A stretch of DNA of 39,494 nt, from positions 1-39,494 of IMG/VR virus record IMGVR_UViG_2711768073_000020. One strand, given 5' to 3'. Source of the stretch: a virus. Its lineage: Duplodnaviria > Heunggongvirae > Uroviricota > Caudoviricetes. Both the position numbers and the translations under genes were made by a program. Shown piece after piece: positions 1,255-22,808 of this stretch. The notes beneath the pieces were generated by a model. It worked only from the letters and a program-made list of their open reading frames with translations, was not told where the DNA came from and did no database searches. How positions within the stretch are numbered: the first letter of the stretch is position 1; each line of letters opens with the position of its first letter.

Positions 1255-1260
1255 ATAAAA

Positions 1261-1323: not shown

Positions 1324-1368
1324 AACCTTGTCCACCGTGATTCACGTTCGTGAACATGTCCTTTCAGG

Positions 1369-1444: not shown

Positions 1445-1458
1445 TTTAAATCAATAAG

Positions 1459-4043: not shown

Positions 4044-4170
4044 TTTGTTCTCCACGTATATGCGCTGCACCGCGCTGAATTCTGGTAAAAAGAATCCCTC
4101 ACCATCCGGCGATTATTGAGTAAATTACGTTTCCATAAATGCCCCCGCAGGGGCATTTGCAGTAATGAAA

Positions 4171-4995: not shown

Positions 4996-5060
4996 AATAA
5001 GTCCTCACTATATAAAGATATTCAGTGATGAGATAAATAATCAGTTAATTAAGAACGATA

Positions 5061-5423: not shown

Positions 5424-5860
5424 TTTGCTGCTCCTCATCATATCGACCCTGCAAGGCCGATTAGTTTCTCCACAAAACAGAGAAGAACACCTGCGGTAGC
5501 AGCCGCCCGGATGGATTGGGTTATGAGCCCGTCGTCCGGTGATGCTCTTCTCTGTTTTGTAAAAAGGACGGTACCAGCCGGAAGCAAGGGTACAAACTGG
5601 TACCGCCAGGACTACACACAGCATAAAGTTGTGGTGCCGGGTGCCTCCCGGTGCCTGGCGAAGGTTGCACACCAGACGGGTGGGTATCCACAGAAGGTCG
5701 ACTGTCAGCCTCAACCTTAACCCGCGTGCGCTGAGCCGCATTCACCACAACGCTAAGGATTCTCTTTGGTTGAAAATACTTAGCTGTTATGTGCCTGTCT
5801 TTTCACCACTTCAGGCTCGGTGGTATCCTTTTAAGCCCGTATACATAAAAGGAAAATCAA

Positions 5861-6106
5861 ATGACTTTTGATGAAAAAGAACTTGATAATGCAATTAATA
5901 AAATCATCGTAACGTCGCTCTTTTCCTGTCTCAGCGACACTCAGCAGAAACAGTTCTACGAATCGGCTTTCAACATGATCGAGCGTTGTTGTTTCTGCGA
6001 TGCCGACGAGTTACCTGAAAAAATCAGGAAACAGTTGGCTGATGCTCTTCGAGTGCGACTTTCTGACCAATTTTCTGAAATGTGCTCTCCGAATTTGGAC
6101 AAATAG
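5861..6106 (+). CDS. Hypothetical small protein, 81 aa
   Basis: AAGGA RBS 7 nt upstream of ATG; Cys-containing (CCFCDADE); converges on and overlaps a minus-strand ORF. Confidence 0.4.
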   Translation: MTFDEKELDNAINKIIVTSLFSCLSDTQQKQFYESAFNMIERCCFCDADELPEKIRKQLADALRVRLSDQFSEMCSPNLDK

Positions 6107-6299
6107 AAAAAGGCCATTTCCATTCAGGGTCTGATGGAAATACTTCAGCCTGTTCCAAAGCACGGCGTAAAGAGAACACAACTCCAGCCATAATCTGATG
6201 TTTCCCATTGGTCCAGCTATCGCCGCTCTGATCTACAGGGGCGGCTATGTCGTATGACCAAACGACTTCACAGTTATTGTTTAAAATCTGGACTTTCAT
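6024..6299 (-). CDS. Hypothetical protein, first gene of the leftward early operon (91 aa from ATG 6299; 98 aa if from 6320)
   Basis: AGGTG RBS 6 nt before the ATG at 6297-6299; lies downstream of the candidate PL; no arginine-rich N-like motif. Confidence 0.4.
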   Translation of the reverse strand: MKVQILNNNCEVVWSYDIAAPVDQSGDSWTNGKHQIMAGVVFSLRRALEQAEVFPSDPEWKWPFSICPNSESTFQKIGQKVALEEHQPTVS

Positions 6300-6425
6300 T
6301 TCATACACCTGCTTTAACATGAGTGCCTAGTGGCACAACATGACTCAACGAATCATCCTGGACTTCATATGCCCCAGGCGGCTACTTCGTGGGCGTCCTG
6401 CCTGTTCGTTGTTTCGCTTGGGTAC

Positions 6426-6453
6426 ATTATGTATCTCAAAGGTACATTGTCAA
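6426..6453 (-). promoter_or_regulatory. Candidate PL promoter with repressor half-sites (minus strand: TTGACA-16 nt-CATAAT)
   Basis: Minus-strand perfect -35 TTGACA (plus 6448-6453) and -10 CATAAT (plus 6426-6431); two direct copies of AATGTACC overlap the promoter, the same GTAC-core half-site as in OR. Confidence 0.45.
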
Positions 6454-6454
6454 G

Positions 6455-6480
6455 TATAAAAAAACCTGCCGAAGCAGGTT
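6455..6480 (-). terminator. Rho-independent terminator of the cI transcript
   Basis: Minus strand: stem AACCTGC / GCAGGTT (6463-6480) with 4-nt loop, followed by TTTTTTTA; begins 13 nt after the cI stop codon. Confidence 0.6.
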
Positions 6481-6492
6481 CATAAACATTGA

Positions 6493-7167
6493 TTAGGCTT
6501 TGATTTTGTATCTTCTTGGTTTTCCTGAGAAAATCACTGTACCAATTATAGAGCAATTACCGTTGATCTTAATGTAAGGCTCAGGCCAGTTTGGGTTTAA
6601 CGCTTTGAGATAACGCTGTGTCCCATCTTCTATCAACCTTTTGAAGGTGGTTTCGCCTGTATCGTGCATCAATGCAATAACGTCGTCACCGTGGCAGGCA
6701 GGTACTTCAGGATCGACAAAAATCATGTCTCCCGGGCGGTACTCATCAATCATTGAATCACCTATCACCCGCAAGATATAAGTCATTTCCCCACAGGGTA
6801 CAGGGCAGGGATACGTTTCTGCTGTGCTCAAATCAACCTCAGAATATCCAACTTCTTTCCATGCTCCGGCCTGTACCCATGATATGACAGGGACTAATGT
6901 GATTTGTTTATTAGTGATTGAAACATCAGGTTTTTTTGTGATGTTCGTTGTCTGGTGTTCTTGATCGAGCCATCCGACAGGCAGGTCGAAACATTTTTCG
7001 ATGTGTCGTGCCATGCTGTCACCGATATTTTTAGTAGCACCATCTCCCATAAACCTGCTGGTCTGGGTTGGCTCGCGATCAATCATAGTGGCAAAGGAAG
7101 AATTCCCGCCAACACCATCTCTCAGTTTTCTGGCGTTAGACCGCCGGATGTCATGGATTGTTTTCAT
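6493..7167 (-). CDS. cI: CI-type prophage repressor (HTH plus S24 LexA-like peptidase domain), 224 aa
   Basis: C-terminal self-cleavage domain with Ser motif (VIGDSMIDEYRPGDMIFVDP) and a downstream Lys (TTFKRL); divergent from a cro-like gene across an operator-rich 90-bp spacer. Confidence 0.85.
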   Translation of the reverse strand: MKTIHDIRRSNARKLRDGVGGNSSFATMIDREPTQTSRFMGDGATKNIGDSMARHIEKCFDLPVGWLDQEHQTTNITKKPDVSITNKQITLVPVISWVQAGAWKEVGYSEVDLSTAETYPCPVPCGEMTYILRVIGDSMIDEYRPGDMIFVDPEVPACHGDDVIALMHDTGETTFKRLIEDGTQRYLKALNPNWPEPYIKINGNCSIIGTVIFSGKPRRYKIKA

Positions 7168-7182
7168 AACGAAATTAAAACC

Positions 7183-7252
7183 CTTGTACCGTTAAGGTAC
7201 AAGTATCTTGAAGGTTCATTTCAATCATGTAATATGTACACCGGAGGTACAT
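7183..7252. promoter_or_regulatory. OR region: two palindromic operators plus candidate PR (-35 TTGAAG 7208-7213, -10 TAATAT 7230-7235)
   Basis: Perfect palindrome CTTGTACC-GTTAA-GGTACAAG (7183-7203) and ATGTACA-CCGGAG-GTACAT (7234-7252) between divergent cI and cro; GGAGG RBS at 7243-7247 before the cro ATG. Confidence 0.55.
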
Positions 7253-7257
7253 ATTGT

Positions 7258-7458
7258 ATGAAAGCGTATTGGGACTCTTTAACCAAAGAACAGCAGGGCG
7301 AGTTGGCCGGAAAAGTTGGCTCAACACCTGGCTACTTACGGCTGGTTTTCAATGGCTATAAAAAAGCCAGTTTTGTGCTGGCTAAAAAACTTGAGCAATG
7401 CACGTCAGGTGCAATTACGAAATCTGACTTAAGACCGGATATCTATCCGAAAGATTAG
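7258..7458 (+). CDS. cro: Cro-like HTH regulator (YdaS/Cro family), 66 aa
   Basis: MKAYWDSLTKEQQGELAGKVGSTPGYLRLVFNGYKK...; GGAGG RBS; divergent from cI. The 167-aa ORF-track version (from 6955) overlaps the cI promoter region and is rejected. Confidence 0.6.
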   Translation: MKAYWDSLTKEQQGELAGKVGSTPGYLRLVFNGYKKASFVLAKKLEQCTSGAITKSDLRPDIYPKD

Positions 7459-7489
7459 CAGAACACTTTCAATTTTTAACCACAGAACG

Positions 7490-8053
7490 ATGAGGCTAAC
7501 CGTGGGTAAGCATCACTGGAAAATAGAAAAACAGCCTGAGTGGTACGTGAAAGCTGTCAGAAAAACTATCGCGGCGTTGCCGGGTGGTTACGCTGAAGCG
7601 GCTGACTGGCTCGATGTAACAGAAAACGCTTTATTCAACCGCCTTCGTGCAGATGGCGATCAGATTTTCCCGCTGGGATGGGCAATGGTTTTACAGCGTG
7701 CTGGTGGCACTCACTTCATTGCTGATGCTGTGGCGCAGTCTGCAAATGGCGTCTTTGTGTCTCTTCCTGACGTCGAGGATGTGGACAACGCCGATATCAA
7801 CCAACGCCTGCTGGAAGTCATTGAACAGATCGGCAGTTATTCAAAACAGATTCGTTCAGCAATTGAAGACGGTGTAGTGGAACCGCATGAGAAGACAGCA
7901 ATTAACGATGAGCTGTACCTCTCAATTTCGAAGCTGCAGGAGCATGCAGCACTGGTCTACAAAATCTTTTGCGTTTCAGAAAGTAGTGACGCCCGCGAGT
8001 GTGCAGCTCCGGGCGCCGTGGCGTGTCGTGACTGTGGAGAAACTAACGCATGA
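7490..8053 (+). CDS. CII-like phage regulatory protein (YdaT/CII-family position), 187 aa
   Basis: Immediately follows cro; alternative GTG start at 7502 has a better RBS (GAGG); C-terminus has a Cys cluster ([14 protein letters not shown]). Confidence 0.45.
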
Positions 8054-8388
8054 ACAGTTTAACAACACACTACCGTCGCTCGCAACTGATTGCGCTTCCT
8101 GTACCGGGTGGAAAAGCGAAGGTGGAGTATTGCTATGCAGTAAATGTACCAGGTGACAGGGAAATTGTAACCCACAGCTTTGCAGAGTGGGCTGTGGGTG
8201 ATTTCAACCGGCAGAAGGAGACAGTCCTTTGCGACAAGTTAACCGCTGGTTCAAAGATCACTACGGAGTGCCCGTCAGAGTCATTCGTTGGGAGCCGGAA
8301 ACACAACGTGTTATCTACCTCCGCGAAGGCTATGAGCATGAGTGCTTCAGCCCGCTCGAACAGTTTCGTCGTAAATTCAGGGAAATAG
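8050..8388 (+). CDS. Hypothetical protein; C-terminal half possibly out of frame (see small ORF 8229..8408)
   Basis: ATGA start coupling with the upstream gene; the N-terminal ~55 aa look protein-like, the C-terminal part is low-complexity Ser-rich ([10 protein letters not shown]) while an alternative frame over the same DNA looks coding. Confidence 0.3.
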
Positions 8389-8408
8389 AGGTCGGTCATG
8401 AGCACTAA
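8229..8408 (+). CDS. Candidate small protein (59 aa, TTG start) not in the ORF track
   Basis: Strong AAGGAG (8215-8220) 8 nt upstream of TTG 8229; translation [59 protein letters not shown] has balanced, protein-like composition; stop overlaps the start of the O-like gene. Confidence 0.35.
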
Positions 8409-9339
8409 ATTAACCGGCTATGTATGGGATGGTTGCGCTGCATCAGGCATGAAATTATCCAGCGTGGCAATTATGGCCCGCCTGGCTGATTTCAGTAATG
8501 ACGAAGGTGTGTGCTGGCCATCAATTGAAACCATTGCCCGCCAGATTGGCGCGGGAATGAGTACCGTCAGAACGGCTATCGCACGGCTGGAAGCAGAAGG
8601 CTGGTTAACGCGTAAGGCGCGTCGCCAGGGTAACCGCAATGCGTCGAATGTTTATCAGCTTAACGTTGCGAAGCTTCAGGCAGCGGCATTTTCTCAACTG
8701 TCAGATTCTGACCCGTCAAAATCTGACGCATCAAAATCTGACCCGTCAAAATTTGATGCGTCGAAATCTGGCAAAAAAGCGGGTTTTCACCCGTCAGAAT
8801 CTGGCGGGGATCCGTCAGTAAAATCAAAACATGATCCGTCAGATAAAAAAACTTCTCGTCCGGACGCTTCGCAACCGGACACGCAGACGGCTGAACAGGA
8901 GTTTTTAACTCGCCATCCTGATGCGGTTGTATTCAGCCCTAAAAAGCGCCAGTGGGGAACGCAGGATGATTTGACCTGCGCACAGTGGCTCTGGAAAAAA
9001 ATCATCGCCCTGTACGAGCAGGCCGCCGAATGTGACGGCGAGGTGGTTCGTCCCAAAGAACCGAACTGGACAGCCTGGGCAAACGAAATTCGCCTGATGT
9101 GTGTGCAGGATGGTCGTACTCATAAACAAATCTGCGAGATGTACAGCCGCGTCAGTCGCGATCCGTTCTGGTGCCGTAACGTGCTCAGCCCGTCGAAGCT
9201 GCGGGAAAAATGGGATGAGCTTTCCCTGCGCTTATCGCCGTCCGTCAGCACGTACACCGAAAAACGCGAAGACCCGTACTTCAAAGCCAGTTACGACAAC
9301 GTGGACTACAGCCAAATCCCGGCAGGATTCAGGGGGTGA
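8398..9339 (+). CDS. Replication initiation protein (lambda O-like: N-terminal HTH DNA-binding domain, iteron-containing linker, C-terminal domain), 313 aa
   Basis: N-terminus SSVAIMARLADFSNDEGVCWPSIETIARQIGAGMSTVRTAIARLEAEGWL (winged-helix initiator type); central repetitive SDSDPSKSDASKSDPSKFDASKS encoded by DNA iterons. Confidence 0.7.
   Translation: MSTKLTGYVWDGCAASGMKLSSVAIMARLADFSNDEGVCWPSIETIARQIGAGMSTVRTAIARLEAEGWLTRKARRQGNRNASNVYQLNVAKLQAAAFSQLSDSDPSKSDASKSDPSKFDASKSGKKAGFHPSESGGDPSVKSKHDPSDKKTSRPDASQPDTQTAEQEFLTRHPDAVVFSPKKRQWGTQDDLTCAQWLWKKIIALYEQAAECDGEVVRPKEPNWTAWANEIRLMCVQDGRTHKQICEMYSRVSRDPFWCRNVLSPSKLREKWDELSLRLSPSVSTYTEKREDPYFKASYDNVDYSQIPAGFRG
8701..8805. repeat. Origin-type iterons: five 15-bp-spaced copies of TCA(A/G)AATCTG(A/G)C plus one more, followed by an A-rich tract
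   Basis: Copies at 8701, 8716, 8731, 8746, 8761 and 8794; AGATAAAAAAAC at 8841-8852; embedded in the initiator gene as in the lambda ori. Confidence 0.6.
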
Positions 9340-9830
9340 GCATGAGTCTTTTGAATGACGTTCAGAAATTCATTGAAGCCCATCCGGGCTGTACTTCCGG
9401 AGATATTGCGGATGCTTTTGCCGGTTACTCACGGCAGCGCGTTCTGCAGTCAGCAAGCAAGTTACGTCAGAGTGGGCGTGTGGCTCACCGTTGTGAAGGA
9501 GATACACGCAGACATTTCCCGCGCCTGACTGAGAGAGCGCAGGAACCGGAACCACAACCAGTTCGTGAAACCAGACCTGTGCGCAATTTCTATGTCGGCA
9601 CTAACGATCCCCGTGTGATTTTGTGCCTGACCCGCCAGGCGGAAGAACTGGAGTCCAGGGGCTTATACCGTCGTGCTGCAACCGTGTGGATGGCGGCATT
9701 CCGTGAAAGCCACTCCCAGCCAGAACGAAACAATTTTCTGGCGCGTCGTGAGCGGTGCTTACGGAAAAGCAGCAAGCGCGCTGCATCGGGTGAAGAGTGG
9801 TATCTGTCAGGGAATTACGTGGGGGCTTAA
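9336..9830 (+). CDS. Hypothetical replication-region protein, 164 aa
   Basis: ATGA overlap with the O-like gene stop; basic C-terminus; not recognisable as lambda P, DnaC or a helicase. Confidence 0.45.
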   Translation: MSMSLLNDVQKFIEAHPGCTSGDIADAFAGYSRQRVLQSASKLRQSGRVAHRCEGDTRRHFPRLTERAQEPEPQPVRETRPVRNFYVGTNDPRVILCLTRQAEELESRGLYRRAATVWMAAFRESHSQPERNNFLARRERCLRKSSKRAASGEEWYLSGNYVGA

Positions 9831-10483
9831 TGAGTAATAAATATTGCCAGGCGCTGGTGGAACTGCGGAACAAACCAGCCCATGAACTGAAGGAAGTGGG
9901 CGATCAGTGGCGCACGCCGGACAACATTTTCTGGGGAATTAACACCCTGTTTGGCCCGTTTGTTCTGGATCTGTTCACTGACGGTGATAACGCCAAATGT
10001 GCCGCGTATTACACGGCGGAAGACAACGCGCTGGCGCATGACTGGTCAGAACGTCTTGCGGAGCTTAAAGGTGCTGCCTTTGGTAATCCCCCATACAGCC
10101 GCGCCAGTCAGCATGAGGGGCAATACATCACCGGCATGCGTTACATCATGAAACATGCCAGTGCCATGCGTGATAAGGGCGGGCGCTATGTTTTCCTGAT
10201 CAAAGCTGCCACCAGCGAAGTGTGGTGGCCGGAAGATGCAGATCATATTGCTTTTATTCGCGGGCGTATTGGTTTTGAACTGCCTGTCTGGTTTATCCCG
10301 AAAGACGAGAAGCAGGTACCGACAGGAGCTTTTTTCGCTGGTGCTATTGCTGTTTTTGACAAGACCTGGAAGGGACCGGCAATCAGCTACATCGGGCGCG
10401 ATGAACTTGAGGCATGTGGTGAGGCGTTTCTGGCGCAGGTTCGCCAGCAGGCAGAAAAACTGGTCAGGGAGATGGCGGCATGA
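9830..10483 (+). CDS. Phage DNA N6-adenine methyltransferase (Dam-like), ~217 aa
   Basis: Catalytic NPPY motif (AFGNPPYS); start ATG 9830 overlaps the upstream stop (TAATG). Confidence 0.8.
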   Translation: MSNKYCQALVELRNKPAHELKEVGDQWRTPDNIFWGINTLFGPFVLDLFTDGDNAKCAAYYTAEDNALAHDWSERLAELKGAAFGNPPYSRASQHEGQYITGMRYIMKHASAMRDKGGRYVFLIKAATSEVWWPEDADHIAFIRGRIGFELPVWFIPKDEKQVPTGAFFAGAIAVFDKTWKGPAISYIGRDELEACGEAFLAQVRQQAEKLVREMAA

Positions 10484-10806
10484 CGACGTTAACTCAATGC
10501 CAGCAGCAGGTGCTGGATATGCTGATTTCTTATCAGAAAGAACGTGGCTTCCCGCCAACCAATCAGGAGGTGGCAACCATGCTGGGATACCGTTCAGTGA
10601 ATGCAGCGGTGGAGCATCTTCGCGCACTGGAGAAAAAAGGCGTCATCACGATAAAGCGTGGCGTGGCCCGGGGGATCACGCTTCATACCGCGGTGAAGGA
10701 CGACGACAGCGAGGCGGTCGGGATTATCCGCTCACTGCTTGCCGGTGAGGAAAACGCAAGGCTGCGTGCAACCCACTGGTTACATGAGAGAGGCCTGAAA
10801 GCATGA
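10480..10806 (+). CDS. LexA N-terminal DNA-binding-domain-like protein (no peptidase domain), 108 aa
   Basis: QQQVLDMLISYQKERGFPPTNQEVATMLGYRSVNAAVEHLRALEKKGVI parallels the LexA winged-HTH N-domain; no Ser/Lys S24 domain follows. Confidence 0.6.
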   Translation: MTTLTQCQQQVLDMLISYQKERGFPPTNQEVATMLGYRSVNAAVEHLRALEKKGVITIKRGVARGITLHTAVKDDDSEAVGIIRSLLAGEENARLRATHWLHERGLKA

Positions 10807-11192
10807 AGCTGATCCTGCCTTTTCCGCCCAGCGTGAACACGTACTGGCGACACCCCAACAAAGGGGCGTTTGCTGGTAAGAGCCTGATAAGCTCGGCGGG
10901 GCGAAAATTCCAGAGCGCGGCGTGCGCAGCAATAGTTGAGCAGTTACGTCGTCTGCCGAAACCAACGTCGGCACCTGCTTCAGTGGAGATCGTGTTGTTT
11001 CCTCCGGATAACCGGATCCGCGATCTGGACAACTATAACAAGGCGCTGTTTGACGCCCTGACCCATGCGGGTGTGTGGGAAGACGACAGTCAGGTGAAAA
11101 GAATGCTGGTGGAGTGGGGACCGGTTATCCCGAAAGGGAAAGTCGAGATCACTATCAGTAAGTACGAGAAAACGGCGGGTGCAGCCGCCTGA
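10803..11192 (+). CDS. rusA: Holliday junction resolvase RusA
   Basis: ~129 aa with RusA-like acidic motif (DNRIRDLDNYNKALFDALTHAGVWEDDSQV); ATGA coupling with the upstream gene. Confidence 0.8.
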   Translation: MKLILPFPPSVNTYWRHPNKGAFAGKSLISSAGRKFQSAACAAIVEQLRRLPKPTSAPASVEIVLFPPDNRIRDLDNYNKALFDALTHAGVWEDDSQVKRMLVEWGPVIPKGKVEITISKYEKTAGAAA

Positions 11193-11211
11193 TCAAGAGG
11201 AGAAACGAAGT

Positions 11212-12021
11212 ATGAATAATCTGATGGTCATTGATGGTATTGAAGTTCGTCGTGATGCTTATGGGCGTTACAGCCTGAACGATCTGCATCGCGCAGCAGT
11301 AGCATCTGGTGCAAATGCCAGAACCAAGGAGCCGGGAAAGTTTCTTTCCAGCCAACAAACTGTTGAGCTTGTTCATGAATTGACCAACACCCAGAATTTG
11401 GGTGTTGACCCAGTGAGTGTGATTCATGGGGGAAATGAACGGGGAACGTATGTCTGCAAGGAACTGGTGTATGCCTATGCAATGTGGATCAGCCCGTCAT
11501 TCCATCTGAAGGTGATCCGTACTTTCGATATGGTAACCAGCGCACCGGAAAAATTATCCGGACAGGCTGCTGACAAGATGCAGGCTGGCGTGATCCTGCT
11601 GGACTTTATGCGCCGGGAGTTAAACCTGTCTAACTCTTCAGTGCTTGGTGCCTGTCAGAAACTCCAGGAGGCTGTTGGCTTACCGAATCTGGCACCGCGC
11701 TATGCCATTGATGCTCCTGCTGACGCGCCTGATGGCTCAAGTCGCCCGACACTGTCACTGAGTGCACTGCTGAAACAGTATGGTATCCGCCTTACGGCTA
11801 ATCAGGCATATCACCAGATGGTGAAGCTGGGGATCGTCGAGCAGCGCGAACGATACAGCCGTACCTCGATTAACAACATCAAAAAATTCTGGTCGCTGAC
11901 AGCGAAAGGCTGCATGTTCGGCAAGAACATCACCAGTCCCGCAAATCCGCGCGAGACGCAGCCGCATTTCTTCGAATCCCGATTCCCTGAGCTGTTAAAG
12001 CTGCTCGATACCGTTCATTGA
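11212..12021 (+). CDS. KilA-N domain protein (antirepressor-like), 269 aa
   Basis: N-terminal MNNLMVIDGIEVRRDAYGRYSLNDLHRAA... KilA-N-type pattern; AGAGGAG RBS 9 nt upstream of ATG 11212. Confidence 0.55.
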   Translation: MNNLMVIDGIEVRRDAYGRYSLNDLHRAAVASGANARTKEPGKFLSSQQTVELVHELTNTQNLGVDPVSVIHGGNERGTYVCKELVYAYAMWISPSFHLKVIRTFDMVTSAPEKLSGQAADKMQAGVILLDFMRRELNLSNSSVLGACQKLQEAVGLPNLAPRYAIDAPADAPDGSSRPTLSLSALLKQYGIRLTANQAYHQMVKLGIVEQRERYSRTSINNIKKFWSLTAKGCMFGKNITSPANPRETQPHFFESRFPELLKLLDTVH

Positions 12022-12022
12022 G

Positions 12023-13018
12023 GTGACTGTGAGAGCACTACTGACCCCTGAAATTGCCCCGCGTATGGGGATCGTATTGTTCAGACCAGGTTCAGAGCTG
12101 ATGCCCTTGTTTATGCAGGGGCGTGTCTTGCTGGAGCCTGAGCCGGAACGTTATTCATCTTTCGCCAGTGGTGCCGTTCCGGCGGCATCACAACCGCTGG
12201 CGGATGATCCTGCCGTTCGGGCCGTGTTCCGCAATGAGGCAGTGATCCGTCGTGCTGGTGGCGTGGAATGTCTTGAAAGCTGGTTACTTCGTGAAAAAGG
12301 CTGCCAGTGGCCTCATTCCGACTGGCACAGCGAGAACATGACAACAATGCGACACGCTCCGGGCGCAATCCGTTTGTGCTGGCACTGCGATAACCAGCTG
12401 CGCGATCAGTTCACGGAACGGCTGGAATCAATGGCAACGGATAACAGTGCCCGCTGGGTGTTGTCTGTTGTGCGTCGGGATCTCGGTTTTGATGACAGTC
12501 ATGTTGTGACAATGCCGGAACTGTGCTGGTGGCTGATTCGTAATGATCTGGCGGATGCCTTACCGGAAAGTGCAGCCCGTAAGGCACTGAGATTACCGAA
12601 GCCTGTTGTGCCGTCTGTTACCCGGGAAAGTGACCTTGTGCCTTCGGTTCCTGCCACCAGCATCATCCAGGATAAGGCGAAAAAGGTGCTGGCGCTGAAA
12701 GTGGATCCGGAGTCGCCGGAGTCTTTTATGTTACGTCCCAAACGTCGCCGCTGGGTTAATGAAAAGTACACGCGATGGGTTAAGACGCAGCCGTGCGCAT
12801 GTTGTGGAAAACCTGCTGATGATCCCCACCACCTGATAGGTCACGGTCAGGGTGGAATGGCTACAAAAGCGCATGACCTCTTTGTGTTGCCTTTGTGCAG
12901 AAAGCATCACGACGAGCTGCATGCGGATACCGTGGCATTTGAAGAGAAGTATGGCTCCCAACTGGAGCTGATATTTCGTTTTATCGATCGCGCGCTGGCG
13001 ATTGGTGTGTTGGCCTGA
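12023..13018 (+). CDS. DUF968 protein (YdfU-like) with C-terminal zinc-finger/HNH-like motif, 331 aa
   Basis: C-terminal CACCGKPADDPHHLIGHGQGG...CRKHHDELH; GTG start, true start uncertain. Confidence 0.55.
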   Translation: MTVRALLTPEIAPRMGIVLFRPGSELMPLFMQGRVLLEPEPERYSSFASGAVPAASQPLADDPAVRAVFRNEAVIRRAGGVECLESWLLREKGCQWPHSDWHSENMTTMRHAPGAIRLCWHCDNQLRDQFTERLESMATDNSARWVLSVVRRDLGFDDSHVVTMPELCWWLIRNDLADALPESAARKALRLPKPVVPSVTRESDLVPSVPATSIIQDKAKKVLALKVDPESPESFMLRPKRRRWVNEKYTRWVKTQPCACCGKPADDPHHLIGHGQGGMATKAHDLFVLPLCRKHHDELHADTVAFEEKYGSQLELIFRFIDRALAIGVLA

Positions 13019-13407: not shown

Positions 13408-13437
13408 ACAGGTTGGCCCCATATGAGGCCAACCTGT
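13408..13437. other. Perfect 11-bp-stem hairpin between convergent Q and the membrane-protein gene
   Basis: ACAGGTTGGCC-ccatatga-GGCCAACCTGT; starts 7 nt after the Q stop and overlaps the minus-strand gene's stop codon; no U-tract on either strand. Confidence 0.4.
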
Positions 13438-13886
13438 CACAAGTGGGGGAAGATTTTTCGTAACACTAACCAACACCTTCCGAAGGTATATAGCGAAATT
13501 ATAAGGGAGGATAAGCCTAACAGTATGAATAGGAAATCAATAGGTTTGCCCGCAACAATAACATCATCTGGTAGAAACATCGCTATCAATGGAAATATAC
13601 ATGCGACGATGAGAGTTAACCCTGTTGAAAGTAATCGATTTACCAGAGTTGGTAACACGTTGTTTTGCTTAAGGGCATTAATTGCTCCTTCCTTATCGCT
13701 GTTTGCACTACTAAATATAGATATTGCAGCCAGAACAAAACCAAACAGGATGCCTGATATAGTCGAGAGCACCCCCGCTGTTGTGAGTACGTCAGCATGC
13801 TTCATCGGTTTAAACAGTTTTGTCGCTGCATAGGTCAACAGAATCCAGAGGACGCATTTCCAGAGAAAAGTGGCTAATTCTCTCAT
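13437..13886 (-). CDS. Small integral membrane protein with four predicted TM helices (RexB-like architecture), ~149 aa
   Basis: Four hydrophobic segments (LATFLWKCVLWILLTYAA; VLSTISGILFGFVLAAISIF; LLSTGLTLIVACIFPLIAMFL; IDFLFILLGLSSLIISLYTF); GGAGG RBS before ATG 13886; 21 nt downstream of the 313-aa gene on the same strand; AT-rich by eye. Confidence 0.6.
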   Translation of the reverse strand: MRELATFLWKCVLWILLTYAATKLFKPMKHADVLTTAGVLSTISGILFGFVLAAISIFSSANSDKEGAINALKQNNVLPTLVNRLLSTGLTLIVACIFPLIAMFLPDDVIVAGKPIDFLFILLGLSSLIISLYTFGRCWLVLRKIFPHL

Positions 13887-13907
13887 TGTGTCCTCCATGC
13901 TTGGTTA

Positions 13908-14849
13908 TTAGTCTCTGCTAGCGAGCTCATACTGTGCAAGATAGTTCGCGTTATCAATTTTAGCAGATATCATCGCCGTTCTGATATCAGAATCGGATGG
14001 ATAACCGCTTTTGACAATGATTGTCTTTGTACTGACCAATACTTGGTCAAGTAGACTTTTGGGCGTTCTATTGGATGGCTCTGTTACATCAATTTTTTTA
14101 ATTTTTAGACCTCCAGAACCTTTTGGAAAAAGTTCAAGTAGTTCCTTAATAGCATCGGTGACAGAAGTTTTTAGATAGTTAAAACCTTGTTTTTTCGGGC
14201 GAATCCGACCTCGCATATTTAATCTTAGATGCGACCCGCCCATACCAACAACCATGTCAATAATTTCATTAGCTAAAGGGTTTTTAATCTTATAATTAGC
14301 TTTGTTAAAGTTTCTTGGAGCAGCAACTATAAGATCGAAACTACGTAGGATATTTCCGTCCTCAAGCAGTTCCTTCATGCTCTCTTGTTTCCAAATGGCT
14401 TCAAAAGTGACGCTTTTTAAATCAGTTTTGTTATACAAAATGAATGCCAGATCATTTACTTTGGGCCCTATATGGTTGAGGGTCATAGCTAATAAGTCCG
14501 TTTCGTAGTAATAGATAAAATATGTTCTTTCAACTACAGAATCTTTATCATTTAAAGGAATTGTTCTCTCACTACCTGTAGCATCCTCGATGAACGGTAG
14601 TAGGCATTCCCTTCTCCACGATACGTAACCAAAGTAACATTGCAGTGTGGTATCTTTTTGAAGAATAACTAACTTTAACCCTCGATTTGGGGTGTCTGTT
14701 GTGTAAGTTATTGGAAAAGTTACAGTATCTGCTGTGGTCATTTGCTCAAAGGCTAGTTTTGCAGCAGATGTGCCATCTTTTTTGCTTCCATTACCAGTGA
14801 AAAAACCAACTCTCACTCGCCTGGTTTTATTCTTATTTTCTGTACTCAT
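13908..14849 (-). CDS. 313-aa soluble protein of unknown function, co-operonic with the 4-TM protein (candidate RexA-like sensor)
   Basis: Basic N-terminus (KNKTRRVRV); no enzymatic motif recognised; AT-rich coding sequence, antisense to all flanking phage genes; candidate promoter on the minus strand upstream (TTGTTG...TAAAAT). Confidence 0.6.
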   Translation of the reverse strand: MSTENKNKTRRVRVGFFTGNGSKKDGTSAAKLAFEQMTTADTVTFPITYTTDTPNRGLKLVILQKDTTLQCYFGYVSWRRECLLPFIEDATGSERTIPLNDKDSVVERTYFIYYYETDLLAMTLNHIGPKVNDLAFILYNKTDLKSVTFEAIWKQESMKELLEDGNILRSFDLIVAAPRNFNKANYKIKNPLANEIIDMVVGMGGSHLRLNMRGRIRPKKQGFNYLKTSVTDAIKELLELFPKGSGGLKIKKIDVTEPSNRTPKSLLDQVLVSTKTIIVKSGYPSDSDIRTAMISAKIDNANYLAQYELASRD

Positions 14850-16328: not shown

Positions 16329-16461
16329 TACACCTGTACCGTTTATACCCAACCCACTGACGTATGGTGCAAGTCTTGATTTGAATGTAAGTTTGTTATC
16401 CGCGTTGGCTCAATGTAATAGGGATAAGTCTGATATCAGAATCATTGATAATCAAAATTGA
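16213..16461 (+). CDS. o-spanin (Rz1-like) lipoprotein, ~82 aa
   Basis: Signal peptide plus lipobox MMIVLHVLCLLPLLTGC, Pro-rich mature part; starts inside Rz in a different frame and extends 133 nt beyond its stop. Confidence 0.6.
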   Translation: MMIVLHVLCLLPLLTGCGSTRTVYVNTPAVPLPASLTSDTPVPFIPNPLTYGASLDLNVSLLSALAQCNRDKSDIRIIDNQN

Positions 16462-16664
16462 TGTATATTTTTATCGTCATGTAGATAACGAACAAGGTAT
16501 TCCTCTGATACGTTTCGTTGAATACAGGTCATGGGTAGGCATTGCAATATCGCTTCGAAATTATCTGTGATAATGCTCTTAATTTTGAATGTATGTATTT
16601 GGGAAAAGAGATAAAGTAATAGTCTAATTAATGGAGATATCCACAAAACACAAAAGGGACTATT

Positions 16665-17171
16665 ATGCGACCAGATCAATTTTTCTATCCAGATACTTTT
16701 ACCTTTAATTCATCCACCTATTATGGTCAACGTGACTCATCTAAAGGTCGATTGTATATTCCTATTGAAAGTGACTTATGTCCATTTAATATCGGCGATA
16801 TCATTGTGCAAAAAATGGTCGACAGGGAAAGACTATTTGAAGTGCTTGATTACGAGGTGCAAATTAGTCTCGAGGCTGGTTGCCCTGGCTACTCACATTT
16901 GGCGGTATTGATAGTGAATGCATTGGATGTAAAAGAGAAGCCGAAGCAGATTACGACCCATTTGACGTTTAACGGTGCTATTAATGCTGGTGGTGATTTT
17001 CAAGCCGGTAATGACAATTCGATCACAAAGAATATAACCATTCAACAACTACATGATGCTATAGAGCATTGCAATGATCCAGAGGTTAAAAGCCTTTGGC
17101 AAAAGCTATTGGAAAATCCGACGTTTGCTTCAATTGCTTCAATATTGGCAAAAAGTGCTTTAGGACAGTAA
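16665..17171 (+). CDS. Hypothetical cargo protein, 168 aa (AT-rich, between lysis and packaging genes)
   Basis: AAGGGA RBS 6 nt upstream; preceded by a ~200-bp AT-rich spacer and followed by its own terminator; no signal peptide or motif recognised. Confidence 0.5.
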   Translation: MRPDQFFYPDTFTFNSSTYYGQRDSSKGRLYIPIESDLCPFNIGDIIVQKMVDRERLFEVLDYEVQISLEAGCPGYSHLAVLIVNALDVKEKPKQITTHLTFNGAINAGGDFQAGNDNSITKNITIQQLHDAIEHCNDPEVKSLWQKLLENPTFASIASILAKSALGQ

Positions 17172-17180
17172 TTCATCAAG

Positions 17181-17202
17181 CCCCATTCAATATGGGGTTT
17201 TT
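17181..17202 (+). terminator. Intrinsic terminator after the 168-aa gene
   Basis: CCCCAT-tcaat-ATGGGG followed by TTTTT. Confidence 0.65.
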
Positions 17203-17228
17203 ATGCTTATTACAAAGAGTTTTCTTCA

Positions 17229-17579
17229 ATGCCACCACGAACTCCAAAAGCCTGCCGTGTTCGCGGGTGCCGCCGTACCACCACTGACCCGTCAGGTTAT
17301 TGCGAAAGCCACAAAAGCGAAGGCTGGAAGCAATACAAGCCAGGACAATCCCGTCATCAGCGCGGCTACGGTTCGAAGTGGGACGTTATCCGCGCGCGTG
17401 TGCTGAAACGTGACAAAGGTTTATGTCAGTTATGTCTGCGCGCTGGTGTGGTGCGTGAGGCGAAAACTGTTGACCACATCATCCCTAAAGCGCATGGCGG
17501 CACTGATGCCGACTGTAATCTGCAGAGTCTGTGCTGGCCGTGTCATAAGGCGAAGACGGCCCGTGAACGGTTGAAGTGA
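17229..17579 (+). CDS. HNH endonuclease (terminase-associated), copy 1, 116 aa
   Basis: Cys-rich zinc motifs (CRVRGC...CESH) and HNH core (DHIIPKAHGGTDADCNLQSLCWPCH); 5' part only ~88% identical to copy 2 at the DNA level. Confidence 0.8.
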   Translation: MPPRTPKACRVRGCRRTTTDPSGYCESHKSEGWKQYKPGQSRHQRGYGSKWDVIRARVLKRDKGLCQLCLRAGVVREAKTVDHIIPKAHGGTDADCNLQSLCWPCHKAKTARERLK

Positions 17580-17704
17580 TAATAATTCTCAACTGCCTGA
17601 GGGGAGGGGCGGGTCAAATCCCTGCGGCCTGACGTCTTCCGGACTGCCCGCCCCATCGTTTTTTTATACCCGCGAAAAATGAAATTTAACCAGGAGTGCC
17701 GCAT
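17580..17704. other. Candidate cos / packaging region between HNH and TerS (copy 1)
   Basis: GC-rich dyad GGGGCGGG...CCCGCCCC followed by TTTTTTTATAC; in HK97-type phages cos lies between the HNH gene and the small terminase gene. Confidence 0.3.
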
Positions 17705-18190
17705 ATGGCTGGAACGGCGGGGCGTTCCGGGCGTCGCCCCAAGCCAACGGCGCGCAAGGCGCTGGCCGGAAACCCCGGCAAGCGAGCCCTGAATAAAGAT
17801 GAACCTGTTTTTACGCCCATCAAAGGTGTTGAGCCACCGGAATGGTTCGCTGAAGAAGATCTCCCTCTCGCTACGATCATGTGGCAACTGACAACTAAAG
17901 AACTCTGCGGTCAGGGCCTGCTGTGCGTGACTGACCTCGCGGTGCTTGAGCGGTGGTGCGTGGCCTATGAGTTCTGGCGACGTGCCGTGAAAAATATTGC
18001 CAGCCAGGGCAACACCATTACCGGTGCAATGGGCGGTATGGTCAAAAACCCGGAGCTGACCGCCAAGAAAGAACAGGAGTCCGAGATGAGCAGCACGGGG
18101 GCAATGCTCGGACTCGACCCCAGCAGCCGCCAGCGTCTGATTGGCCTGGCGGGGAAGAAGAAAGCCACTAACCCGTTTCTGACAATCTGA
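17705..18190 (+). CDS. Terminase small subunit (P27 family), copy 1, 161 aa
   Basis: [14 protein letters not shown]... with AGGAG RBS 8 nt upstream of ATG 17705; protein identical to copy 2. Confidence 0.75.
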
Positions 18191-18203
18191 AAATCATCGA
18201 ATC

Positions 18204-18388
18204 ATGAGCCGGAAATCTTACCCCAACGTAAATGCTGCCAATCAGTATGCCCGGGATGTCGTGCGCGGAAAGATTGTGGCCTGCCAGTTTGTGATTCAGG
18301 CCTGCCAGCGCCATCTTGATGACCTGATGGCGGAAAAAAGTAAGTCGTTTCGTTACCGCTTCGACAAGGATCTGGCTGAACGGGCCGC
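18204..18388 (+). pseudogene. Terminase large subunit, 5' fragment (first ~62 codons) truncated at an IS3 junction
   Basis: Matches the first ~185 nt of the intact TerL gene at 21075 and diverges after 18388, where IS3-derived sequence begins. Confidence 0.8.
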
Positions 18389-19038
18389 ATTCCACGCAGA
18401 TTATGCCGCTTCAGTTGCGCCTGATAATCTGCTGAACAGTACTGGCCTCCACGGTCCGTGTGAACGATAACGTTCCGGGGCCTCTTACGCCGCCACAGCG
18501 CCATCTGCAGGGCATCGCAGGCCAGTTGCGCCGTCATGCGTGGCGACATTGACCAGCCAATAACGGCACGTGACCACAGGTCAATGACCACTGCCAGATA
18601 CAGCCAGCCTTCATCTGTACGTAAGTACGTGATGTCTCCTGCCCACTTCTGGTTCGGGCCACTGGCGTAAAAATCCTGCTCCAACAGATTTTCTGACACA
18701 GGCAGGCCGTGTGCGCGGTAGCTGACCGGGCTGAACTTCCGGGAGGCCTTTGCCCTCAGTCCCTGACGGCGCAGGCTTGCCGCCACGGTTTTTACGTTAA
18801 AGGGGTAACCCTGAGCACGCAGTTCATCCGTCAGGCGTGGGGCACCGTAACGCTGTTTTGACCGGGTAAAAGCCGCGAGGACAACGCTGTCGCAGTGTTG
18901 GCGGAACTGCTGACGCGTGCTTATCCTTGTCCGCCGCTGACACCACGTATACCAGCCGCTGCGGGCCACCCGGAGCACGCGGCACATTGCTTTGATGCTG
19001 AACTCAGCCTGATGTTTTTCAATAAAGACATACTTCAT
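18389..19038 (-). pseudogene. insF: IS3 transposase InsF (OrfB), 3'-truncated
   Basis: [36 protein letters not shown]...QLKRHNLRG matches IS3 InsF, then reads into non-IS DNA. Confidence 0.8.
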
Positions 19039-19334
19039 TTCAGGCGCTTCGCGAAGTATGTCGCGGCCTTTTGGAGGATAGCCAGCTCTTCATCCCGTTC
19101 TGCCAGCTGGCGTTTGAGACGTGCAATCTCGGTAGACATCTCCAGTTCACGTTCAGAAGACGTCTGCTGATTTTGCTGTTTACTGCGCCAGTTGTAGAGC
19201 TGTGATTCATACAGGCTGAGTTCACGGGCTGCGGCAGTAACACCGATGCGTTCAGCAAGCTTCAGGGCTTCACTGCGAAATTCAGGCGAATGCTGTTTAC
19301 GGGGTTTTTTACTGGTTGATACTGTTTTTGTCAT
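19035..19334 (-). CDS. insE: IS3 InsE (OrfA), 99 aa
   Basis: [54 protein letters not shown]... from ATG 19334. Confidence 0.85.
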
Positions 19335-19396
19335 GTGAGTCACCTCTGACTGAGAGTTTACTCACTTAGCCGCGTGTCCACTATTGCTGGGTAAGA

Positions 19397-19570
19397 TCAC
19401 TCATCACGTATTTGTGTTTCATGTTTGCGATTGTAGAAGTAGCCATTCAGTTCATTTAACTTTTTATGCATCCTATCGTGACTAATTGCTTCGATCAGTA
19501 AATCCTGAATCATACTTTTCTCTAGGTAATCCGAACGGTTGTAAGTGACAGTATTGTGCTGGCATGTCAT
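19397..19570 (-). pseudogene. Small ORF (57 codons) whose stop codon is supplied by the IS3 terminus; probable IS3-truncated gene
   Basis: Minus-strand ORF MTCQHNTVTYNRSDYLEKSMIQDLLIEAISHDRMHKKLNELNGYFYNRKHETQIRDE ends with the TGA of the IS3 end TGATCTTACC; no clear RBS. Confidence 0.3.
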
Positions 19571-19613
19571 TAATATGTAAAGGTATTGTGAATGCCAGAA
19601 AGATAACGAAGTA

Positions 19614-19949
19614 TCATCGATAGAAAAACTTTACAGCCCACTCGTAAACAGCTTTGTAAATCGGTTCATGGTAAATACTATCGATACTATTCAGATGTGC
19701 GATCATCGCCTCCACAGTTGTAGTGGTTGTTTCTAATATTTCGATTATTGCAGGGCGGTCATCATCTTCATCGAAGTATTCGAACAGCAGTACAGGTTTA
19801 CCATGCAATTCAGCATCTGAGACTCTAAGGTTACAACTACCGCTCAACTCAAAGTGAATTTTGTAATTACCTTCTACAGAATGGCCTACGGGGAAAAAGT
19901 ATAGGGTGTCATCTTTGTTCAAAAGCCATGCCCATTCATAACTATTCAT
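19614..19949 (-). CDS. Hypothetical acidic protein, ~111 aa (AT-rich island between the IS3 fragment and packaging module 2)
   Basis: AGGAG 7 nt upstream of ATG 19949; poly-Thr/acidic stretch (DEDDDRPAIIEILETTTTT). Confidence 0.45.
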   Translation of the reverse strand: MNSYEWAWLLNKDDTLYFFPVGHSVEGNYKIHFELSGSCNLRVSDAELHGKPVLLFEYFDEDDDRPAIIEILETTTTTVEAMIAHLNSIDSIYHEPIYKAVYEWAVKFFYR

Positions 19950-20099
19950 TTGTGAACTCCTGTTCATTGAGTTTCAACAACTATCAACTACATCCAGCGA
20001 AGCATAAAAGATCGTTTATGGCAAAACCGGAATGGAGTGCGATTCGATTCTGAGAAGGGTGCCACGTATCGTACGCGAACCATCCAAGAGGATTATGCA

Positions 20100-20450
20100 A
20101 TGCCCCCACGAACCCCAAAAGCCTGCCGCGTTCGCGGCTGCCGCCATACCACCACTGACTCGTCAGGCTATTGCGAAAGCCACAAAAGCGAAGGCTGGAA
20201 GCAATACAAGCCAGGCCAGTCCCGACACCAGCGCGGTTATGGTTCGAAATGGGATGTTATCCGTGAACGTGTGCTCAAGCGTGACAAAGGCCTGTGCCAG
20301 TTGTGCCTGCGTGCTGGTGTGGTGCGCGAGGCGAAAACCGTTGACCACATCATCCCTAAAGCGCATGGCGGCACTGATGCCGACTGTAATCTGCAGAGTC
20401 TGTGCTGGCCGTGTCATAAGGCGAAGACGGCCCGTGAACGGTTGAAGTGA
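20100..20450 (+). CDS. HNH endonuclease (terminase-associated), copy 2, 116 aa
   Basis: Same HNH motifs as copy 1; AGAGGA RBS 7 nt upstream of ATG 20100. Confidence 0.8.
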   Translation: MPPRTPKACRVRGCRHTTTDSSGYCESHKSEGWKQYKPGQSRHQRGYGSKWDVIRERVLKRDKGLCQLCLRAGVVREAKTVDHIIPKAHGGTDADCNLQSLCWPCHKAKTARERLK

Positions 20451-20575
20451 TAATAATTCTCAACTGTCTGAGGGGAGGGGCGGGTCAAATCTCTGCGGCC
20501 TGACGTCTTCAGGACTGCCCGCCCCATCGTTTTTTTATACCCGCGAAAAATGAAATTTAACCAGGAGTGCCGCAT
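20451..20575. other. Candidate cos / packaging region between HNH and TerS (copy 2)
   Basis: Same GC-rich dyad and T-tract as copy 1 with 3 substitutions. Confidence 0.3.
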
Positions 20576-21061
20576 ATGGCTGGAACGGCGGGGCGTTCCG
20601 GGCGTCGCCCCAAGCCAACGGCGCGCAAGGCGCTGGCCGGAAACCCCGGCAAGCGAGCCCTGAATAAAGATGAACCTGTTTTTACGCCCATCAAAGGTGT
20701 TGAGCCACCGGAATGGTTCGCTGAAGAAGATCTCCCTCTCGCTACGATCATGTGGCAACTGACAACTAAAGAACTCTGCGGTCAGGGCCTGCTGTGCGTG
20801 ACTGACCTCGCGGTGCTTGAGCGGTGGTGCGTGGCCTATGAGTTCTGGCGACGTGCCGTGAAAAATATTGCCAGCCAGGGCAACACCATTACCGGTGCAA
20901 TGGGCGGTATGGTCAAAAACCCGGAGCTGACCGCCAAGAAAGAACAGGAGTCCGAGATGAGCAGCACGGGGGCAATGCTCGGACTCGACCCCAGCAGCCG
21001 CCAGCGTCTGATTGGCCTGGCGGGGAAGAAGAAAGCCACTAACCCGTTTCTGACAATCTGA
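20576..21061 (+). CDS. Terminase small subunit (P27 family), copy 2, 161 aa
   Basis: Identical protein to copy 1; immediately followed by the intact large subunit. Confidence 0.8.
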
Positions 21062-21074
21062 AAATCATCGAATC

Positions 21075-22808
21075 ATGAGCCGGAAATCTTACCCCAACGT
21101 AAATGCTGCCAATCAGTATGCCCGTGATGTCGTGCGCGGAAAGATTGTGGCCTGCCAGTTTGTGATTCAGGCCTGCCAGCGCCATCTTGATGACCTGATG
21201 GCGGAAAAAAGTAAGTCGTTTCGTTACCGCTTCGACAAGGATCTGGCTGAACGGGCCGCCAAATTTATTCAGCTGTTGCCGCACACCAAGGGTGAGTGGG
21301 CATTCAAGAGGATGCCCATCACGCTGGAGCCGTGGCAGCTCTTTGTGATCTGCTGCGCGTTTGGCTGGGTCAATAAAGGCTCCCGGCTGCGCCGCTTCCG
21401 TGAGGTGTATACCGAAATCCCCCGTAAGAACGGCAAATCGGCAATCTCTGCCGGTGTCGCCCTGTATTGTTTTGCCTGTGATAACGAGTTCGGCGCGGAA
21501 GTGTATTCCGGTGCCACGACGGAGAAACAGGCATGGGAAGTCTTTCGTCCGGCAAGACTGATGTGTAAACGCACACCCATGCTGACGGAAGCGTTCGGGA
21601 TTGAGGTTAACGCCTCAAACATGAACCGTCCGGAGGATGGCGCGCGGTTTGAACCGCTGATCGGCAACCCCGGTGATGGTTCATCACCCCACTGTGCCGT
21701 GGTGGATGAATATCACGAGCACGCCACCGATGCGCTTTATACCACAATGCTTACCGGGATGGGGGCGCGACGTCAGCCACTGATGTGGGCCATCACCACC
21801 GCCGGGTACAACATTGAGGGGCCGTGCTACGACAAGCGGCGGGAAGTCATCGAGATGCTCAACGGCTCGGTGCCTAACGATGAACTGTTCGGGATCATCT
21901 ATACCGTTGATGAAGGTGACGACTGGACCGACCCGCAGGTGCTGGAAAAAGCCAATCCAAATATTGGCGTATCGGTTTATCGCGAATTTTTGTTAAGTCA
22001 GCAGCAGCGTGCGAAAAATAACGCCCGTCTGGCAAACGTCTTTAAAACAAAACACCTCAATATCTGGGTGTCGGCACGTTCGGCGTATTTCAACCTGGTG
22101 AGCTGGCAGAGCTGCGAGGATAAATCACTGACCCTTGAGCAGTTCGAGGGGCAGCCGTGCATTCTGGCCTTTGACCTGGCGCGTAAGCTGGATATGAACA
22201 GCATGGCGCGACTTTATACCCGCGAGATTGACGGTAAAACGCATTACTACAGTGTGGTCCCGCGCTTCTGGGTACCGTATGACACGGTGTACAGCGTCGA
22301 GAAAAATGAAGATAGACGGACAGCCGAACGCTTTCAGAAATGGGTGGAAATGGGCGTCCTGACCGTTACCGATGGTGCAGAGGTGGATTATCGCTACATC
22401 CTCGAAGAGGCCAAAGCGGCGAACAAAATCAGCCCGGTCAGTGAGTCACCCATCGACCCCTTCGGGGCGACCGGGCTGTCACATGACCTTGCTGATGAAG
22501 ATCTGAATCCCGTCACTATCGTCCAGAACTTCGCCAATATGTCCGATCCGATGAAAGAGCTGGAAGCAGCGATTGAATCGGGACGCTTTCATCATGACGG
22601 CAATCCCATCATGACCTGGTGTATCGGCAATGTGGTCGGCAAAAACATGCCAGGTAACGATGATTTAGTGAAGCCCGTCAAGGAGCAGGCGGAAAACAAA
22701 ATCGATGGTGCGGTTGCACTGATTATGACGATCGGTCGGGCAATGCTCAAAGAACCTGACGATTTCCTCTCATCTCTTGATCCGGACGATGATCTCTTAA
22801 TTCTATGA
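21075..22808 (+). CDS. Terminase large subunit, 577 aa
   Basis: Size and position after TerS; N-terminal ATPase region with Walker A-like EIPRKNGKS and C-terminal nuclease region. Confidence 0.9.

Follow-up and report, generated by a model that had tools for sequence, protein, structure and literature searches.

Does this prophage truly carry its DNA-packaging genes twice, and if so, what joined the two sets? The question is raised by a stretch of 39,494 nucleotides (nt) from a virus assigned to the Caudoviricetes (IMG/VR record IMGVR_UViG_2711768073_000020, positions 1 to 39,494), which is referred to here in its whole length as the window. It holds an SfV/e14-family prophage of about 38 kb in which a unit made of an HNH endonuclease gene, a cohesive-end site (cos), the gene of the small terminase subunit (TerS) and the beginning of the gene of the large terminase subunit (TerL) stands ahead of a piece of the insertion sequence IS3 and recurs in front of an intact TerL gene. 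A reading made earlier from the letters alone, referred to below as the sequence-only reading, had taken the arrangement for a recombination joint between two related prophages, in which the first module was truncated by a partial IS3. We found that the repeat and its identity profile are real, that the modules and the IS3 are ordinary, and that the claimed joint rests on an N in a draft scaffold.

The window is the final 39.5 kb of the Escherichia coli draft scaffold CYGD01000024.1 (assembly GCA_001284425.1, locus L015; contig positions 21969-61462), a draft with the hallmarks of short-read assembly, and it ends within one base of the contig end. Positions 1-12622 match the scaffold at 100%, and over positions 11075-32808 (21,734 nt) a single base differs, base 18389, for which the public record has N where the window has A. 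In scaffolded short-read assemblies, Ns mark joins made from read pairs. The A fits neither of its neighbours, as both TerL and IS3 have C at this place. An exact look-up of the TerL protein led to the draft assemblies that share the window's structure, and the loci in GCA_001284425.1 and in its sister assembly GCA_001284085.1 (L019) contain exactly one N each, both at the discontinuity between TerL and IS3. In L015 the N follows TerL nt 185 and precedes IS3 nt 249; in L019, which has the same gene order, it stands 18 nt earlier, between TerL nt 167 and a single T that precedes a complete IS3. The L019 join reads ...CGACAAGGA N T|TGATCCTACCC..., with the right inverted repeat (IRR) end of the element included.

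The N in the record, together with the shifted N and the full IS3 of the sister assembly, therefore identifies the 'partial IS3' and the 'TerL cut at codon 62' as contig ends. The 18388/18390 boundary is a scaffold join and not a biological junction, and where a sequenced novel junction between two parental genomes would stand, the record has an N. Thus, the proposed recombination joint dissolves into a single-N join between TerL nt 185 and the IS3 interior that is placed differently in L019. From the truncation of the first module by a partial IS3, the repeat and the IS3 piece remain, but the boundary between them consists of two contig ends brought together by the scaffolder. A single N written as A made these ends look like a recombination joint, a 'partial IS3' and a 'truncated TerL', which calls for caution.

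Taken literally, the window would record an illegitimate fusion of TerL nt 185, an untemplated A and IS3 nt 249 (...GGGCCGC-A-TTCCACGCAG), leaving an immobile IS3 and a 62-codon TerL stub. The sequence as given does read so. However, the A is N in the source record, the sister assembly has another boundary and a full IS3, no microhomology was found at the boundary, and a look-up among 15 billion collected proteins found neither of the two fusion open reading frames (ORFs). We consider such a fusion very improbable. Neither the tandem arrangement nor the window's junction occurs in any of 5,426 complete E. coli genomes, and in none of them does a TerL 5' end adjoin an IS3 IRR end; the window's junction was likewise absent from species-representative genomes, and a TerL 5' end adjoining the IRR end was found neither in species representatives nor in JGI metagenomes. 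An exact look-up of the predicted junction ORFs of 56-75 amino acids (aa) was set aside as uninformative, as partial TerL N-terminal fragments of many lengths are already present in draft assemblies, where fragments of 50-110 aa annotated as partial are common.

The repeat (17215-18388 against 20086-21259) is direct, ungapped and 1174 nt long, with an offset of 2871. The recurrence of the unit before the intact TerL was thus correctly recognized in the sequence-only reading, as was the change of identity within it, given there as about 88% before position 17469 and near-identity from there on. An ungapped comparison at this offset gave 87.4% identity over 17215-17468 (32 mismatches in 254 nt) and 99.6% over 17469-18388 (4 mismatches in 920 nt), and the switch at 17468/17469 is sharp (Fisher p = 3e-18). 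The four mismatches lie at 17596, 17621 and 17640, which are the three substitutions noticed earlier in the spacer between HNH and TerS, and at 18254 in TerL. The upstream flanks, described before as different, are unrelated to each other, and the uniform near-complete identity of a simple tandem duplication is absent. Position 17468/17469 is a mosaic breakpoint within the HNH gene, of which the 5' 240 nt are 12.6% diverged, nearly all synonymously, and no difference occurs in the 3' 110 nt; when the window is compared with its closest relatives, breakpoints are clustered from the end of HNH to cos (17571-17640). Both HNH ORFs are intact, and 24 of their 27 differing codons are synonymous, which marks them as two alleles kept under purifying selection.

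As the sequence-only reading had proposed, two related prophage lineages are involved, and each upstream half of the repeat is 100% identical to a separately attested lineage. On the side of copy 1, the gene orf168 (the upstream flank of module 1, 'A') and the HNH 5' half (16640-17470) are identical at 831/831 positions to single-module prophages such as that of E. coli QDFD216, and 100% identical also to W619 and UID2309220036; over 17215-17468 the first HNH copy has zero differences from QDFD216 and from the prophage of GCA_946055155.1 (L018). On the side of copy 2, the flank ('B') and the HNH 5' half (19400-20340) are identical at 941/941 positions to the genomes PS1Thumoskin9 and 602687 and 99.9% identical to a third IS3-bearing genome, CD45; the next best matches are at 97.7%. 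The window is collinear with PS1Thumoskin9 from within IS3 through the end of TerL. IS3, flank B and the second HNH allele (HNH-B) are found together in an e14-like element at icd in at least six complete or near-complete genomes, and in the complete ones the exact 111-aa protein of flank B adjoins IS3. Those of PS1Thumoskin9, 602687, CD45, NCTC UGFL01 and CP148535 share with the window the same CTC target within the phrog_12494 gene. The e14-like element is defective, often lacking the left arm and having truncated tail genes. It also differs from the window downstream: the e14-like elements continue into another TerS/TerL allele (about 22 and 99 differences, respectively) and a 413-aa portal protein, whereas the scaffold continues into the TerL of the thrW prophage and a 408-aa portal protein. 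In the complete genome of PEC131, A-like and B-like modules are present at separate loci.

These results bear on the idea that one module was recently duplicated in tandem and then diverged or was replaced in part. The sequence-only reading had already disfavoured it, and it is contradicted by the non-uniform identity and by the lineage matches, which leaves it the least likely of the explanations that we considered. The TerS genes of the two copies are identical, and the copies share alleles that are missing in many relatives, including an 8-nt insertion, as would be expected of a duplication. However, the HNH 5' halves are 12.6% apart, each being 100% identical to its own attested lineage, the flanks are unrelated, all four remaining differences pre-exist as polymorphisms in other phages, and the shared TerS allele also circulates in M8, L016 and L018.

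The positions at which the contigs end are informative. The left contigs stop at TerL nt 185 in the window and L015 and at nt 167 in L019, just before the allelic sites nt 186 and nt 168. The window's TerL allele has T168 and C186, most relatives differ there (nt 186 is G in most), and TerL of the IS3-bearing e14-like lineage (e14-B) has C168, A170 and G186. Since the first 200 nt of TerL contain only 2-3 differing sites, it is unlikely that both contig ends landed just before them by chance. The simplest reading is therefore that a second TerL allele is present in the L015 and L019 genomes and that the assembler stopped at the branch. On the other side of the join, the starting points are ambiguous as well: the right contig of the window starts at TTCCACGCAG, the point of divergence of an IS3 variant with a 42-bp internal deletion, and that of L019 starts one base outside IS3, with the T that is the icd-side flank base in 602687. 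The claim that only module 2 has a full TerL, on which packaging competence was thought to depend, is accordingly not established; module 1 probably continues into the second TerL allele, assembled elsewhere.

The same prophage is present in L018 with one module. It carries both arms, nearly identical to those of the window: the left arm has 5 differences over 10.2 kb, which all fall within 17571-17640, and the right arm has 2 over the 11.5 kb that follow the repeat. This prophage may represent the ancestral state, the outcome of resolution or the structure that truly exists. Wherever L018 differs from the window, L019 has the L018 allele, and the two copies of L019 are identical from 17469 onward. 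At each site where the window departs from L018, its base is that of e14-B: T at 17571, G at 17573, C at 17596, 17621 and 17640, and T at 18254. These alleles are 'swapped' across the copies, with a B-type spacer (CCC) in copy 1 and an A-type spacer (TTA) in copy 2, and the markers are separated by identical stretches of 127 nt and 613 nt, which are beyond typical short-read phasing. Such a pattern is what an assembler yields from two co-resident diverged copies, and closely related co-resident prophage modules cannot be threaded by short reads. A single reciprocal crossover or Campbell-type insertion as the source of the swapped spacers was set aside, as the sites assort freely and the markers cannot be phased across 127-613 nt. 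Gene conversion as the source of the identical TerS copies is needless if the assembler reused or collapsed one path.

On balance, the scaffold is probably a chimera of two elements. The first would be a thrW prophage with a single module, in which orf168, the A-lineage HNH allele (HNH-A) and TerS are followed by the window's TerL and right arm, as in L018. The second would be the widespread IS3-bearing defective e14-type element, with IS3, flank B, HNH-B, TerS and the second TerL allele. The assembler may have been unable to thread the shared stretch of about 0.9 kb (the HNH 3' half, TerS and the TerL 5' end), so that the block of IS3, flank B and HNH-B would have been spliced into the thrW prophage and the shared stretch written twice. 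We may guess that the false join arose from read pairs reaching from the shared stretch into the TerL behind it. What we observed are the match of the window to the scaffold, the N where they were joined, the presence of two lineages, contigs that end at allelic sites and the single module of L018; that the join is false, and not a gap left unfilled in a real tandem, is what we infer from them. A chimera is favoured by the N at the join, the shifted N in L019, the ends at allelic sites, the e14-B alleles, L018 and the location of the IS3-bearing element at icd, and further by the absence of the tandem order from the complete E. coli genomes, by the separate A-like and B-like modules of PEC131, by the frequency of partial TerL fragments in drafts and by the tendency of greedy scaffolders to produce false joins (PMC5320598). 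A tandem polylysogen collapsed by an IS3-associated deletion, as offered by the sequence-only reading, is weakened by L018, which has both arms and one module, and by the position of IS3 and flank B at icd and not at thrW.

Several points weigh against the chimera. Two independent assemblies, L015 and L019, give the same order, and scaffolders do not usually join contigs unless read pairs connect them. Both copies have the same TerS allele, from which the e14-B elements of complete genomes differ at about 22 sites; a chimera would therefore need either the collapse of bubbles at single-nucleotide polymorphisms (SNPs) or an e14 remnant with a converted TerS. In addition, the second TerL contig and the icd-IS3 contig of GCA_001284425.1 are predictions.

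It is possible, though rather unlikely, that the tandem is real and only a gap was left unfilled, in which case the order would be orf168, HNH-A, cos, TerS, a TerL stub of the other allele, a complete IS3, flank B, HNH-B, cos, TerS and the full TerL. Such a structure may have arisen by IS3-associated recombination or deletion between related phages, or a block bounded by IS3 may have entered through the 0.9-kb homology by Campbell-type insertion. The gene order common to L015 and L019 is in keeping with it, as is the usual reliance of scaffolders on read pairs (PMC5320598). That the contigs end at allelic sites would be explained equally well if the stub carries the non-window allele, L018 is exactly the predicted resolution product, and the two copies do not differ in the cos decamer or in the region downstream of it that corresponds to the HK97 TerS binding site. 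The unmatched IS3 flanks, with CTC on one side only, would be expected if IS3 were the recombination joint. However, this arrangement occurs in none of the complete E. coli genomes, in which the B block is part of a defective, non-mobile element of the chromosome at icd, and the junction sequence was not seen in the species representatives or the JGI metagenomes. Moreover, the patchwork of e14-B alleles in copy 1 is unparsimonious if copy 1 is the A phage's own module. Whether chimera or tandem, the arrangement is ordinary.

Both repeated units are ordinary cos packaging modules of the SfV/HK97 type (Table 1). In each copy, an HNH gene directly precedes cos and the terminase genes, at a distance of 116 nt from TerS; cos lies between HNH and a TerS of the P27 family; and the TerL at 21075-22808 has both the ATPase and the nuclease domain. 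The TerL 5' piece (residues 1-62) contains neither, the ATPase domain beginning at residue 86. Downstream of the full TerL follow genes for an HK97-type portal, protease and capsid, and then Mu-type tail genes, as identified by Pfam.

Table 1. Features of the two packaging modules, the interval between them and their upstream flanks (positions in the window).
Feature	Position	Strand	Basis
orf168, cargo gene (phrog_5789, function not known), upstream flank of module 1 ('A')	16665..17171	+	PHROG E = 7e-79
HNH endonuclease, copy 1, 116 aa	17229..17579	+	Pfam HNH E = 5e-15, phrog_144; 5' half A-lineage allele
cos decamer TGCCCGCCCC, copy 1	17645..17654	+	identical to the experimentally determined SfI cohesive end (PMC3636060)
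TerS, copy 1, P27/Terminase_4 family	17696..18190	+	Pfam PF05119 E = 5e-21, phrog_83; gene callers' start is ATG 17705
TerL 5' piece, 185 nt, 62 codons	18204..18388	+	translation; ends with the contig
Scaffold join	18389	.	A in the window, N in the public record
IS3 from the left inverted repeat (IRL) end, 1010 nt	18390..19399	-	1010/1010 identical to the 1258-bp IS3 of PS1Thumoskin9
First 38 codons of 189-aa cargo gene (phrog_12494), interrupted by IS3 at CTC	19400..19513	-	PHROG; empty site of A27
111-aa cargo gene (phrog_14397, function not known), upstream flank of module 2 ('B')	19614..19949	-	PHROG E = 8e-77
HNH endonuclease, copy 2, 116 aa	20100..20450	+	Pfam HNH E = 5e-15, phrog_144; 5' half B-lineage allele
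cos decamer TGCCCGCCCC, copy 2	20516..20525	+	identical to the SfI cohesive end
TerS, copy 2	20567..21061	+	PF05119, phrog_83
TerL, full length, 577 aa	21075..22808	+	Pfam TerL_ATPase PF03354 and TerL_nuclease PF20441

The packaging regions of SfV, SfI, SfII, SfIV, SKA5 and vB_EcoM-720R4 have the same order of HNH, cos, TerS and TerL and are 95-97% identical to the window at the nucleotide level. The window further shares with the SfV-type phages the SfI cohesive-end decamer, the thrW site next to proA and an invariant sequence between cos and TerS. In SfI, the 10-nt cohesive end was determined on virion DNA (PMC3636060). In contrast to the window, SfV-type genomes have one module, hold other cargo or none between Rz1 and HNH, and lack the 8-nt insertion that alters the C-terminus of the window's TerS. 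This insertion, TCTGACAA, lies near the TerS 3' end (18178-18185 and 21049-21056) and changes the C-terminus from ...NPFLKIIES to ...NPFLTI; the usual overlap of TerS and TerL becomes a 13-nt spacer, and both alleles circulate in E. coli prophages.

HNH genes beside cos and terminase genes are widespread (PMC3592412). In HK97, the genes for gp74 (HNH), gp1 (TerS) and gp2 (TerL) are placed as in the window, with HNH directly upstream of cos, TerS and TerL and with portal, protease and capsid genes following. HK97 TerS binds 15-29 bp past the cut, which is made by TerL; gp74 stimulates the cleavage, which is known to depend on it, and the product has a 10-nt 3' overhang (PMC11331095). Within the window, TGCCCGCCCC occurs at 17645 and 20516 only, and the sequence from cos to the start of TerS is the same in both copies and in all comparable relatives. 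By analogy with these phages, both cos sites should be competent, because the decamer and the stretch between decamer and TerS are identical in the copies and in the comparable relatives. The three spacer SNPs are located 5-49 nt upstream of the decamer of copy 1; they assort freely among the viable phages SfV, SfI, SfII, SKA5 and 720R4 and are therefore uninformative on cos function.

If the scaffold order were right, which we regard as doubtful, the locus would be an inducible thrW prophage with two functional direct-repeat cos sites about 3.1 kb apart and with IS3 and foreign cargo between them. In each packaging round, terminase would then excise the IS3 block, since packaging from cos2 to the next cos1 would yield a unit-length genome that lacks it. 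In the lysogen, recombination of the two repeats by RecA would leave a single-module prophage like that of L018. Packaging that began at cos1 would come upon cos2 about 3 kb further on. L018 on the one hand and L015 and L019 on the other would represent two states of a modular phage exchange caught midway. The case would be a modest natural cos duplication and an intermediate of phage mosaicism, but not a new kind of system. Derivatives of lambda with two cos sites, reportedly studied by Emmons in 1974 and by Feiss and co-workers, are said to skip close cos sites or to lose the interval. Only with a real tandem would the likeness to them hold, namely two direct cos sites on one replicon, and the outcome may differ, as HK97 suggests. 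In vitro, the HK97 motor was not released at a cos that it reached after only about 1.3 kb, although this cos was cleaved (PMC10359639).

The IS3 piece of the window measures 1010-1011 nt (18389/18390-19399). Of its two inverted repeats the window has IRL only, intact at 19399; the contig starts inside the element, so that 247-248 nt on the IRR side are missing. With base 18389 included, it matches the PS1Thumoskin9 element at 1010/1011 positions, the only mismatch being base 18389 itself. OrfA is intact (a 102-aa ORF, Pfam HTH_Tnp_1), and OrfB (Pfam HTH_21 and rve) is cut at residue 216 by the contig end. In L019 and L001 the element is complete at 1258 bp. The target CTC is present on the IRL side in the window, as in PS1Thumoskin9, and the IRR-side flank lies behind the scaffold gap. 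In PS1Thumoskin9, CTC flanks both ends of IS3, and the empty site in E. coli A27 reads ...AACTAA CTC ATCACG.... The 10-nt motif TTCCACGCAG occurs twice within IS3, 42 nt apart, and the IS3 contig of the window begins exactly at the second of them; an IS3-like pseudogene copy in E. coli E2865 (L003) is without the interval between the two motifs. In the e14-like icd elements of 602687 (L013) and PS1Thumoskin9 (L014), the tail genes have been lost to IS3-family elements; 602687 lacks the whole left arm as well, and PS1Thumoskin9 retains its left arm, with a second, oppositely oriented IS3 copy in it.

The interval between Rz/Rz1 and HNH (16461-17228 and 19400-20099) is a variable cargo slot in this phage family (L005, L008, L011, L012 and L042). 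It contains orf168 in one lineage and the minus-strand cassette of phrog_14397 and phrog_12494 in another; M8 has a GrlR-family gene in it, SKA5 has a similarly placed gene for a 106-aa hypothetical protein, and in SfV it is empty. An independent insertion of IS3 into the slot was observed in strain PCP06173. The orf168, phrog_12494 and phrog_14397 cargo genes had no Pfam or PADLOC match, only PHROGs of undefined function, and defence or toxin systems were dropped as candidates for them on this ground. A scan for promoters and terminators added one feature, the orf168 terminator at 17178-17200.

The window starts with proA (1-1254), followed by the thrW gene of tRNA-Thr(CGT) at 1369-1444 and the integrase gene on the minus strand at 1459-2622. 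Downstream of thrW and the integrase, the prophage proceeds from a lambda-like early region through holin, lysozyme and Rz genes to HNH, TerS and TerL, the HK97-type head genes and the Mu-type tail genes. A low-GC (0.38-0.43) insert of two minus-strand genes at 13437-14849, between the Q antiterminator gene and the holin gene, encodes a 313-aa protein (phrog_7651, function not known) and a protein of about 150 aa; at the equivalent position, QDFD216 has an SDH-family Clp-fold serine protease instead. In a related thrW prophage of a complete genome (L039, CP050201.1), the early genes yfdP-yfdQ are duplicated in tandem at 5236-8452. At their far end, the window and its source contig terminate inside an invertible tail-fibre segment of the Pin type (38304-39494), of which positions 39383-39494 match QDFD216 in inverted orientation.

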